Assembly (NCBI RefSeq): GCF_056746865.1
Contig: NZ_CM163382.1
Length of the DNA stretch: 64,000 nt
Reading direction: 5' to 3' (one strand)
A program made the translations under genes and the position numbers. Below, piece by piece: positions 15,409 through 18,632 of this stretch (positions are counted from its first letter, which is position 1; every line of letters begins with the position of its first letter). The notes below the pieces were generated by a model, which was not told the origin of the DNA, made no database searches, and was given only the letters and a program-made list of their open reading frames with translations.

Positions 15409-15529
15409 ACTTTTATCCACTTTATTGCTGTTTACGGTCCTGATGACAGGACCGTTTTCCAACCGATTAATCATAAATATGAAAAATAATTGTTGCATCA
15501 CCCGCCAATGCGTGGCTTAATGCACATCA

Positions 15530-15688
15530 ACGGTTTGACGTACAGACCATTAAAGCAGTGTAGTAAGGCAAGTCCCTTCAAGAGTTATCGTTGATACCCC
15601 TCGTAGTGCACATTCCTTTAACGCTTCAAAATCTGTAAAGCACGCCATATCGCCGAAAGGCACACTTAATTATTAAAGGTAATACACT
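15530..15688 (+). promoter_or_regulatory. cspA long 5' untranslated leader (cold-box / RNA thermosensor region); 5' boundary approximate
   Basis: About 160 nt AT-rich leader upstream of cspA ATG; cspA leader function is established knowledge, TSS not determined here. Confidence 0.55.
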
Positions 15689-15901
15689 ATGTCCGGTAAA
15701 ATGACTGGTATCGTAAAATGGTTCAACGCTGACAAAGGCTTCGGCTTCATCACTCCTGACGATGGCTCTAAAGACGTGTTCGTACACTTCTCTGCTATCC
15801 AGAACGATGGTTACAAATCTCTGGACGAAGGTCAGAAAGTGTCCTTCACCATCGAAAGCGGCGCTAAAGGCCCGGCAGCTGGCAACGTAACCAGCCTGTA
15901 A
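15689..15901 (+). CDS. cspA: Major cold shock protein CspA, 70 aa
   Basis: Translation [70 protein letters not shown]. Confidence 0.98.
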
Positions 15902-15928
15902 TCTCTGCTTAAAAGCACAGAATCTAAG

Positions 15929-15958
15929 ATCCCTGCCATTTGGCGGGGATTTTTTTAT
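15929..15958 (+). terminator. cspA rho-independent terminator
   Basis: atccctgccatttggcggggattttttt. Confidence 0.8.
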
Positions 15959-16088
15959 TTGTTTTTCAGGAAATAAATAATCGATCGCGTAATAGAATCT
16001 AGTGTTATTTTTGTGAAGAATAAATTTGGGTGCAATGAGAATGCGCAACACCGTAAGAAAGGCGGGAATAATTTCCCGCCGAAGACGC

Positions 16089-16241
16089 TTACTCTTTCAA
16101 TTTGCAGGCTAAAAACGCCGCCAGCTCATAACTCTCCTGTTTAATATGCAATTCACACAGTGAATCTCTTATCATCCAGGTGAAAAATAAAAGCGTGAAA
16201 CAAATCACTATTAAAGAAAGTAATCTATATTTCTGCGGCAT
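16089..16241 (-). CDS. hokA: Type I toxin HokA (Hok/Gef family membrane peptide), 50 aa
   Basis: Translation MPQKYRLLSLIVICFTLLFFTWMIRDSLCELHIKQESYELAAFLACKLKE; intact frame. Confidence 0.9.
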   Translation of the reverse strand: MPQKYRLLSLIVICFTLLFFTWMIRDSLCELHIKQESYELAAFLACKLKE

Positions 16242-16301
16242 TCCCAGCCCCCTGTGTTGATTTCCAACGAGTAAGAGGCTAACCTTATGGTGTCTATGCA
16301 T
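16089..16301 (-). CDS. mokA: MokA, in-frame upstream reading frame coupled to hokA translation, 70 aa
   Basis: ATG at complement 16299..16301; frame continuous into hokA; hok/mok/sok architecture is established knowledge. Confidence 0.6.
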   Translation of the reverse strand: MHRHHKVSLLLVGNQHRGLGMPQKYRLLSLIVICFTLLFFTWMIRDSLCELHIKQESYELAAFLACKLKE

Positions 16302-16521
16302 AGAGGGGCCTCACTTTGATTTATAGTCAGGTGGGGCTTTTCTCTGTCTGCCTTTCGGTGAATACCTGAGACAAACAGTCTCAAGCACCCGCAGCTATTC
16401 TAGCTTAATAAGTTCGTTTCTTCTCCTTGATATAATCCTAAAAAAATCTCATAAAATTAATATATGAGACAATCTTTATTCAGCAGAAGATTATTAAAGG
16501 TTGCTCTATTATTTAGCGATA

Positions 16522-16550
16522 AAAAAGCCTGCCAGATGGCAGGCTTTTTA
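16522..16550 (-). terminator. Rho-independent terminator downstream of glyS (palindromic, potentially bidirectional)
   Basis: aaaaaagcctgccagatggcaggctttttt. Confidence 0.8.
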
Positions 16551-16562
16551 ATAATGGCGTTA

Positions 16563-18632
16563 TTACTGTAACAGCGAAATATCCGCAACGCGCAGGAACA
16601 GTTCGCGCAGTTTCTCCAGCATGGTCAAACGGTTGATACGCAATTCTTTGTCATCAACCATGACCATCACTTTATCGAAGAAGGCATCAACCGGTTCACG
16701 CAGCTCTGCCAGTTCGACCAGCGCATCCTGGTAACGACCTTCCGCAAAGTACGGCTCCAGCTTGTCACGTAGCACCACAACCTGCATCGCCAGTTTAATT
16801 TCTTCCGGCTCTTTCAGAGTAGAGGCATTCACGCGGTCGCTCAGCACTTCGTCAGATTTCGCCAGAATGTTAGATACACGCTTGTTCGCCGCCGCCAGTG
16901 CTGCAGCTGCATCCAGGGTACGGAAGTGCGATACCGCTTTCATTCGGGCATCGAAATCAGCCGGACGAGTCGGACGACGCGCCAGTACCGCCTGGATGGT
17001 GTCAACAGTGTAACCTTCGTCCTGATACCAGGCGCGGAAGCGACCGAGCATAAAGTCGATAACATCATCAACCACGTTGGCATTTGTCAGCTTATCGCCA
17101 TACAAACGCACCGCTTCTTCGGTCAGGGTTTGCAGGTCAAGATTGAGGTTCTTCTCAACGATAATACGCAGCACGCCAAGTGCGGCACGACGCAGCGCAA
17201 ACGGGTCTTTGTCGCCTTTCGGATGCTGACCGATACCGAAGATACCCGCCAGAGTATCCATCTTGTCAGCAATCGCCAGCGCACAGGCTACCGGGTTAGA
17301 CGGCAGGTCATCACCGGCAAAGCGCGGCTGATACTGCTCGTTCAGCGCCACTGCAACATCTTCCGCTTCGCCATCGTGACGCGCGTAGTGCATCCCCATA
17401 ACGCCCTGGGTGTCGGTGAACTCGAAGACCATGTTGGTCATCAGGTCGCACTTGGACAGCAGGCCCGCACGGGTTGCGTGGTTAACGTCAGCGCCAATCT
17501 GTTCAGCAATCCAGCCAGCCAGCGCCTGGATGCGGTCAGTTTTGTCACGCAGTGTGCCAAGCTGTTGCTGGAACAGCACGGTTTGCAGACGCGGCAGATT
17601 ATCTTCCAGACGTTTTTTACGGTCGGTGTTGAAGAAGAACTCGGCATCCGCCAGACGTGGACGAACGACTTTCTCGTTACCAGAGATAATTTGCTGCGGA
17701 TCTTTCGATTCGATGTTGGCAACGAAGATAAAGTTCGGCAGCAGTTTGCCGTCGTTCGCATACACCGGGAAGTACTTCTGGTCACCTTTCATGGTGTAAA
17801 CCAGCGCTTCAGACGGCACCGCGAGGAATTTCTCTTCGAATTTTGCGGTCAGCACAACCGGCCATTCCACCAGCGAAGCGACTTCTTCCAACAGGCTTTC
17901 GCTTAAGTCAGCGTTACCGCCAATCTTACGCGCCGCTTCTTCGGCATCGGCTTTAATCTTCGCCTTACGTTCTTCGTAATCGGCGATGACTTTCCCGCGC
18001 TCACGCAGAATTTCCGGGTATTGATCGGCATTGTCGATAGTGAATTCCGGCTCGCCCATAAAGCGGTGGCCGCGAATCACGCGATCGGACTGAATGCCCA
18101 GAATGGTAGCCGGAATAACTTTGTCGCCCAGCAGCAGGGTCACGGTGTGCACCGGACGCACGAAGTGCACGTCGCTTGCACCCCAGCGCATCAGTTTCGG
18201 GATCGGCAGTTTCGCCAGCGAAGTCGCAACCATATTCGGCAGCAGTGCTTCGGTGCTTTCGCCCTTCACGTGGGCGCGATACAGCAGCCATTCACCTTTA
18301 TCGGTAGTCAGACGCTCAGCCTGGTCAACGGTAATACCGCAACCACGCGCCCAGCCTTCTGCCGCTTTGCTCGGTTTGCCTTCAGCGTCGAACGCCTGGG
18401 CAATCGCCGGGCCGCGTTTTTCGATTTCACGATCCGGTTGCGCTTCCGCCAGGTTAGCTACTTTCAGCGCCAGACGACGCGGAGCAGCAAACCATTGAAC
18501 GGTGCCGTGTGCGAGGCCAGCGTTATCCAGCTCCGCAGTAAAGTTCGCAGCAAAGGACTCAGCCAGGCTGCGCAGTGCTTTTGGTGGCAGCTCTTCAGTG
18601 CCGATTTCCACCAGAAAAGTTTTCTCAGACAT
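16563..18632 (-). CDS. glyS: Glycine--tRNA ligase beta subunit
   Basis: Translation [43 protein letters not shown]...; 689 aa. Confidence 0.98.

Follow-up and report, generated by a model that had tools for sequence, protein, structure and literature searches.

The hokA locus lies between cspA (15689-15901, + strand) and glyS (16563-18632, - strand) in the window, i.e., the whole analysed stretch of 64,000 nucleotides from contig NZ_CM163382.1 (RefSeq assembly GCF_056746865.1). The RefSeq annotation of this place contains hokA and includes neither mokA nor sokA. The whole region is 100% identical to the annotated uninterrupted hokA locus of the uropathogenic strain E. coli 118UI. According to the list of open reading frames with their translations, both the HokA frame and its in-frame mokA extension are uninterrupted. 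The architecture of mok coupling is present: GAGG is located 7-10 nt upstream of the mokA ATG, and the frame remains open through hokA. An upstream mok ATG in frame with hok is likewise found in the R1-type copy used for comparison. Judging from this layout of frames, translation of hokA is probably coupled to that of the upstream mokA frame.

HokA of the window reaches 76.2 bits against the Pfam profile HOK_GEF (PF01848; cut-off 22, E = 1.4e-21) and 129.7 bits against the NCBIfam HokA equivalog NF007290 (cut-off 89), which covers residues 1-50. Being a protein of about 50 aa above the curated profile cut-offs of Pfam and NCBIfam, it belongs to the Hok/Gef family. In this family, the conserved cysteines 29 and 46 form a disulfide linked to toxicity, and both Cys29 and Cys46 are encoded in the HokA ORF of the window. 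HokA has also been described as hard-encoding both cysteines (bioRxiv 10.1101/2025.08.07.668861).

The Rfam model RF01794 ("sok") matches the - strand from 16390 to 16239 over its full length (model positions 1-157; 120.2 bits, gathering score 59, E = 1.6e-28). Position 1 of the model falls on GGGUGCUUGAG and its final AUG on the hokA start codon, so that in the window the model matches the hokA-sense leader. The initial annotation had described an intact 50-aa HokA with an in-frame mokA ATG at 16299-16301, and the uninterrupted frames together with the Pfam, NCBIfam and Rfam matches agree with it. The locus is also found where that annotation had placed it (16040-16450), but the left edge at 16040 clips the fbi element (16028-16040).

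The surroundings contain several other features. The Rfam cspA thermoregulator match spans 15529-15956. On the + strand, a small ORF of 23 aa (16041-16112; MRNTVRKAGIISRRRRLLFQFAG) runs antisense to hokA, opposite its stop codon and the 3' stem-loop. It corresponds to ysaE of the K-12 annotation and to a hypothetical protein in RefSeq genomes, and has no NCBIfam match. Its annotated length is 60 or 72 nt depending on the strain, and some strains carry no such annotation. A sub-threshold match to Rfam STnc370 at 16489-16555 on the + strand (48 bits, gathering score 54) covers the hairpin GCCTGCCAGATGGCAGGC (16520-16545), which has A/T runs on either side and lies just past the glyS stop codon. 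Most simply, this hairpin is the glyQS terminator, located about 120 nt upstream of the hokA promoter.

Control elements of the hokA mRNA and its predicted antisense RNA

The positions of the elements (Table 1) were set by alignment to an R1-type hok locus and by RNA folding.

Table 1. Coordinates of genes, transcripts and control elements at the hokA locus of the window
Feature	Position	Strand	Remarks
hokA toxin gene	16089-16241	-	50 aa, ORF uninterrupted; start ATG 16241-16239, stop 16091-16089
mokA reading frame	16089-16301	-	70 aa; ATG at complement 16299-16301, in frame with hokA, same stop codon
hokA promoter -10 TAGAAT	16397-16402	-	6 nt upstream of the putative +1; read from the sequence
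hokA mRNA	16028-16390	-	from the putative 5' end (GGGUGCUUGAG) at 16390, where the RF01794 match starts, through fbi
tac, translational activator element (GGGTGCTTGAGA)	16379-16390	-	pairing in MFE folds
tac partner in predicted metastable 5' hairpin	16360-16372	-	RNAfold of 16390 to 16050, nt 1-13 with nt 19-31
ucb, upstream complementary box / anti-SD (AAGCCCCA)	16332-16339	-	folds
mokA Shine-Dalgarno (SD) region GTGAGGC	16308-16314	-	alignment to R1-type hok locus and folds
dcb, downstream complementary box GCCTC	16275-16279	-	pairs with mok SD GAGGC in the truncated-mRNA fold
3' stem-loop GGCGGGAAATTATTCCCGCC	16061-16080	-	terminator-like scan; hairpin expected to protect the 3' end of processed mRNA
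fbi, fold-back inhibitory element (TCTCATTGCACCC)	16028-16040	-	duplex with tac; equivalents in relatives
sokA promoter (predicted)	16257-16285	+	-35 TTGATT 16257-16262, 17-bp spacer, -10 TAACCT 16280-16285
sokA antisense RNA (predicted, ~55 nt)	16292-16347	+	fold; ends putative
cspA terminator hairpin	15926-15953		sole hairpin downstream of fbi; possible convergent terminator for hokA

No good -35 was found upstream of the hokA TAGAAT, either by eye or by the consensus scan. The consensus promoter scan of the window (threshold of 9 matches in 12) reported neither the hokA nor the sokA promoter; the hokA -10 was missed because of its poor -35. As both promoters fall below the scan threshold, positional homology and conservation in the family were used instead. 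The sokA promoter of the window is positionally homologous to what we take to be the site of the R1 Sok promoter, and it has 7 of 12 consensus matches, presumably the same number as that promoter.

The predicted SokA has a 5' tail that covers the mokA start; behind it come a predicted terminator hairpin and UUUUCUCU. Its predicted end agrees with the K-12 sokA remnant, whose 35 nt after IS150 correspond to 16313-16347 of the window, and with the 52-bp target of sokA in E. coli C (PMC3562002). The antisense gene had earlier been guessed at about 16280-16350 on the + strand, over the mokA start. The prediction lies roughly there, with the -10 at 16280-16285, the start at about 16292 and the end at about 16347.

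In Escherichia, no dedicated terminator was found after fbi (15926-16027 in the window), which makes the 3' end of full-length hokA mRNA uncertain. In Klebsiella, Kluyvera, Citrobacter and others, a strong hairpin with a U-run follows 20-35 nt downstream of fbi. The next E. coli hairpin past fbi belongs to the convergent cspA terminator, whose U-tract on the hokA strand is only weak. The hokA mRNA may end near 15925 at this terminator, whose hairpin would then be used by hokA as well. The 3' stem-loop, which is followed by TTTCTT, might itself be a real terminator, and fbi would then never be transcribed. However, a conserved fbi is located downstream of the 3' stem-loop in nearly all relatives, which argues for read-through.

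The window locus and the hok/mok/sok system of plasmid R1 (parB) have the same gene order and the same set of elements (tac, ucb, mok SD, dcb, 3' stem-loop and fbi), and the predicted SokA of the window would lie across the mok start as the Sok antisense RNA of R1 does. Unlike the R1 system, which is carried on a plasmid, the window locus is chromosomal and situated beside glyS. Its leader is about 20 nt shorter than that of the R1 type, and a dedicated terminator after fbi is missing.

Predicted folds and relatives in Enterobacteriaceae

The full-length RNA (16390 to 16026) has a minimum free energy of -137 kcal/mol, with z = -8.03 relative to 100 shuffles. In its predicted fold, fbi is the partner of tac, and the mok SD that of ucb; the tac/fbi pairing occurs in both the MFE and the centroid structure. 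The tac/fbi duplex has an energy of -18.4 kcal/mol; when the 3' region was dinucleotide-shuffled 2000 times, this value was attained once. When the RNA is 3'-trimmed to 16057, RNAfold predicts pairing of tac with ucb and of the mok SD with dcb. The RNA ending at 16050 is predicted to form a local tac hairpin with 16360-16372, i.e., a hairpin of the metastable type. These three predicted folds match the closed, open and metastable mRNA states described for the hok/sok mechanism of R1 (PMC9841398). Fold-back regulation, as supposed in the initial annotation, is supported in so far as the tac-fbi pairing can form in the predicted fold.

A genome scan with a tac...ucb pattern gave 41 matches, about 25 of which are hokA-like loci of Enterobacteriaceae. 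About 16 matches were discarded as unrelated MAGs having no Hok ORF; by calculation, about 11 chance matches are expected in 298 Gb. Most of the hokA-like relatives possess the in-frame 70-aa mok-hok ORF, and nearly all of them have an fbi equivalent at a distance of about 45-60 nt from the stop codon, on its 3' side. The gene lies directly beside glyS in E. albertii, Escherichia sp. E1V33, Pseudocitrobacter, Phytobacter, Citrobacter sedlakii and Kluyvera, as well as in Klebsiella oxytoca/michiganensis/grimontii.

In an alignment of 21 sequences, the full-length fold of the window is 88% canonical, compared with 40-45% in slid controls. Double-sided changes were found at 36 pairs in these 21 loci and at 11-24 pairs in the controls. 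Compensatory changes affect three of the eight pairs in the 3' stem-loop, five pairs in the leader hairpin and three in the ucb/SD hairpin. Five pairs between the mok SD and dcb are nearly invariant in the family. The invariance or covariation of tac and ucb carries no weight, as both were fixed by the search pattern.

The sokA promoter has a 17-bp spacer and a -10 of the form TAnnnT in all 21 related loci and TTGATT in 17 of them. Of the 19 hokA-like loci shown from other Enterobacteriaceae, 15 (14 of them glyS-linked) have an unchanged hokA -10 TAGAAT, and the remaining four, distant copies in different surroundings, read TAGTAT or TAGAGT. The window follows the family consensus at every element except for one fbi base (CUCAUUGCACCC versus the consensus CUCAAUGCACCC). 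Compared with this consensus, one base of the E. coli fbi is left unpaired, with duplex energies of -18.4 versus -19.3 kcal/mol. The change is common to the other hokA alleles sampled from named E. coli strains, and the GTDB representative of E. coli keeps the consensus base. The glyS-linked position and the RNA switch conserved across genera argue, at the level of sequence, that the locus is maintained by selection.

No plasmid-borne hokA proper was found by searching plasmids with the locus; the matches were mainly chromosomes or chromosomal fragments filed as plasmids. The E. coli IncFIA plasmid pE17EC0383-3 (CP088471.1) contains a piece of chromosome with cspA and hokA, in which the hokA ORF has suffered an internal deletion. 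Another entry, CP052389.1 ('K. pneumoniae plasmid', linear, 243 kb), carries glyS-hokA with 78% identity to E. coli and therefore looks like a misfiled chromosomal contig.

IS150 insertions and allele variation in E. coli

The spacer between cspA and glyS is 661 bp long in the window versus about 2.07 kb in MG1655. No IS150 was found between these genes in the window, in accordance with the absence of this element reported earlier. In MG1655, IS150 is annotated at 3720633-3722075, i.e., 32 bp upstream of the hokA ATG and inside mokA. The K-12 annotation treats mokA and sokA as pseudogenes, mokA being cut by IS150. For comparison, IS150 was removed from the K-12 sequence in silico and the remainder was aligned to the window. 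K-12 has a deletion of 39 bp beside IS150, corresponding to 16274-16312 of the window, in which neither the insertion nor the deletion is present. The deleted segment comprises dcb, the -10 and 5' end of sokA, the mokA start codon and the greater part of the mok SD.

Otherwise, the amino-acid sequence of HokA is identical in the window and in MG1655 (b4455), and the sequences of the promoter, tac, ucb, 3' stem-loop and fbi are kept; the 3' UTRs differ by three single bases. Thus, through IS150 and the 39-bp deletion, K-12 loses the 5' control region and the connection of the promoter, tac and ucb to the ORF, and keeps the 3' end and fbi. The idea that the window locus might stand out by retaining a native 3' end was misplaced, since the 3' UTR, 3' stem-loop and fbi of K-12 are intact and the 5' region has been lost instead. 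With this region destroyed, K-12 is an atypical reference, and work on native hokA regulation needs an IS-free strain, of which that of the window is an example.

The locus was found in 5425 of 5426 complete E. coli genomes using a 421-nt query (16020-16440). It is uninterrupted in 2812 of these 5425 genomes (52%) according to the same query and in 2831 according to a 701-nt query. The IS-free genomes include those of O157:H7 Sakai and E. coli C, and the AIEC strain NRG857c has been reported to have hok loci without IS elements, hokA being one of them (PMC7232551). The IS-free state pointed out in the initial annotation is therefore that of the majority and had been reported before.

In 48% of complete E. 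coli genomes the locus is disrupted by IS150, and it is therefore dispensable. Junction-specific queries detected the K-12-type IS150 junction in 1663 of 5426 genomes and a second IS150 insertion in 924 of 5426, including ST131. In the K-12 type, the left junction follows 16273 and the right one is at 16313, with no target duplication. The second insertion has the opposite orientation and a 3-bp target duplication, CTT, at 16314-16316. Two independent IS150 events with one junction each within about 1-3 bp (16313-16316) suggest a hot spot.

The most variable stretch of the locus is 16294-16307, which includes the mokA start on the - strand and the sokA 5' end. Here the E. coli alleles fall into two classes that are set apart by six substitutions in 14 nt; both classes also occur in other Escherichia or related genera. 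The same stretch is one main site of difference among three tandem hokA copies of Pseudocitrobacter faecalis, in which other differences are scattered. Judging from these sequences, the variability may reflect diversification of antisense specificity.

Single-strain changes occur elsewhere in the IS-free locus. Strain ST70 has the tac substitution G5A; in R1, mutagenesis showed substitutions at tac positions 4-6 to be loss-of-function (PMC9841398). Strains 120899 and U12A each have one single-base fbi change that breaks a pair with tac. The hokA SD region contains a GG insertion in JX21CE8 and a 1-nt deletion in U12A.

Proposed regulation and alternative explanations

The sequence elements, the alternative predicted folds and their conservation point to an uninterrupted ancestral-type allele of a chromosomal hokA/mokA/sokA type I toxin-antitoxin system with an R1-like mechanism (probability of about 0.8). 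Transcription, RNA processing, SokA action and killing would, by homology, proceed as in R1. A weak promoter (-10 TAGAAT) would produce hokA mRNA from about 16390. The full-length mRNA would be locked, with the 5' tac paired to the 3' fbi and ucb covering the mokA SD, and would be neither translated nor bound by the antisense RNA. Slow 3' trimming to the stem-loop at 16061-16080 would remove fbi. Then, tac would pair with ucb and the mok SD would enter the dcb hairpin, making the mRNA both translatable and targetable. SokA (about 16292-16347, + strand) would pair across the mokA start and lead to decay. If SokA were lacking, mokA would be translated, and the coupled synthesis of the 50-aa HokA would damage the inner membrane. 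Since the locus is chromosomal and SokA would be made continuously, silence is expected.

It is rather doubtful that the intact-looking locus is functionally inert, i.e., a tolerated remnant that is not switchable in vivo and is drifting to loss, for example because of too-weak transcription, inefficient 3' processing or a too-stable SokA. Several genera have kept the ORFs, the alternative RNA pairings and the sokA promoter at the glyS-linked site, with compensatory changes, which is unexpected for a neutral remnant. The protein itself is toxic when expressed: HokA cloned from MG1655 or LR27 genomic DNA was a previously characterised toxic control in an overexpression assay (bioRxiv 10.1101/2025.08.07.668861). 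Inertness would nevertheless fit with the poor hokA -35, the lack of an own terminator, the two independent IS150 disruptions and the tac or fbi changes in single strains (ST70; 120899 and U12A). It would also fit with the results for E. coli C. According to the same preprint, hokA of E. coli C showed no post-segregational killing and no activation of killing by rifampicin, and inactivity of chromosomal hok loci was suggested by the original authors (bioRxiv 10.1101/2025.08.07.668861). The allele tested was, however, that of E. coli C and not that of the window.

A role of the conserved feature other than that of a toxin system, either through ysaE or through convergent transcripts in the 3'-end formation of cspA/glyQS, is highly improbable. 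The conservation pattern tracks the Hok ORF and the hok mRNA helices, and genera with cspA about 2 kb away still have hokA, with its own terminator; in E. coli, hokA and cspA do converge on one terminator hairpin. Although ysaE is annotated in K-12 and overlaps the hokA 3' end, its product has no family match and its annotation varies between strains. It is also quite unlikely that the control region is a recurrent IS150 target whose inactivated forms are favoured by selection and that the variation of the mokA start and SokA tail results from diversifying selection for antisense specificity. If both of these readings were true, the IS-free allele of the window would be an active toxin locus under selective tension and not a silent relic.

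As for the preferred reading of a chromosomal R1-like system, the feature is already known: the IS-free hokA/mokA/sokA is the ordinary form in E. coli. By its sequence, the window module is competent and of the canonical hok/sok type. Its significance extends little beyond correct annotation. The initial annotation considered the locus potentially functional and worth testing. The first part is in line with the intact elements; the killing experiment, however, had already been done for the E. coli C allele, with a negative result.

According to two later sources, the allele that Pedersen and Gerdes (1999) characterised is the IS-free hokA/sokA of E. coli C (PMC3562002; bioRxiv 10.1101/2025.08.07.668861). 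It is situated between cspA and glyS without IS150 and has the same order of elements as the window. There is no difference between the two in tac, ucb, the mok SD, dcb, fbi or the sokA promoter hexamers. The alleles differ by six substitutions in a 14-nt stretch at the mokA start and sokA 5' end (about 16294-16307), by 2 nt next to +1 and by a few 3'-UTR bases. In HokA, residues 36 and 47 are E and K in the window versus G and N in E. coli C. Owing to these differences, the negative killing result is not automatically transferable to the window allele. As the E. coli C allele was negative, no plasmid-stabilisation activity is expected of the window locus. In the E. coli C genome (NZ_CP020543.1), the region of 190-360 kb is collinear with 3.59-3.75 Mb of K-12, and that of 3.66-3.71 Mb is inverted relative to 0.20-0.25 Mb of K-12. 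The opposite directions of gene order in the two regions indicate a large inversion relative to K-12.
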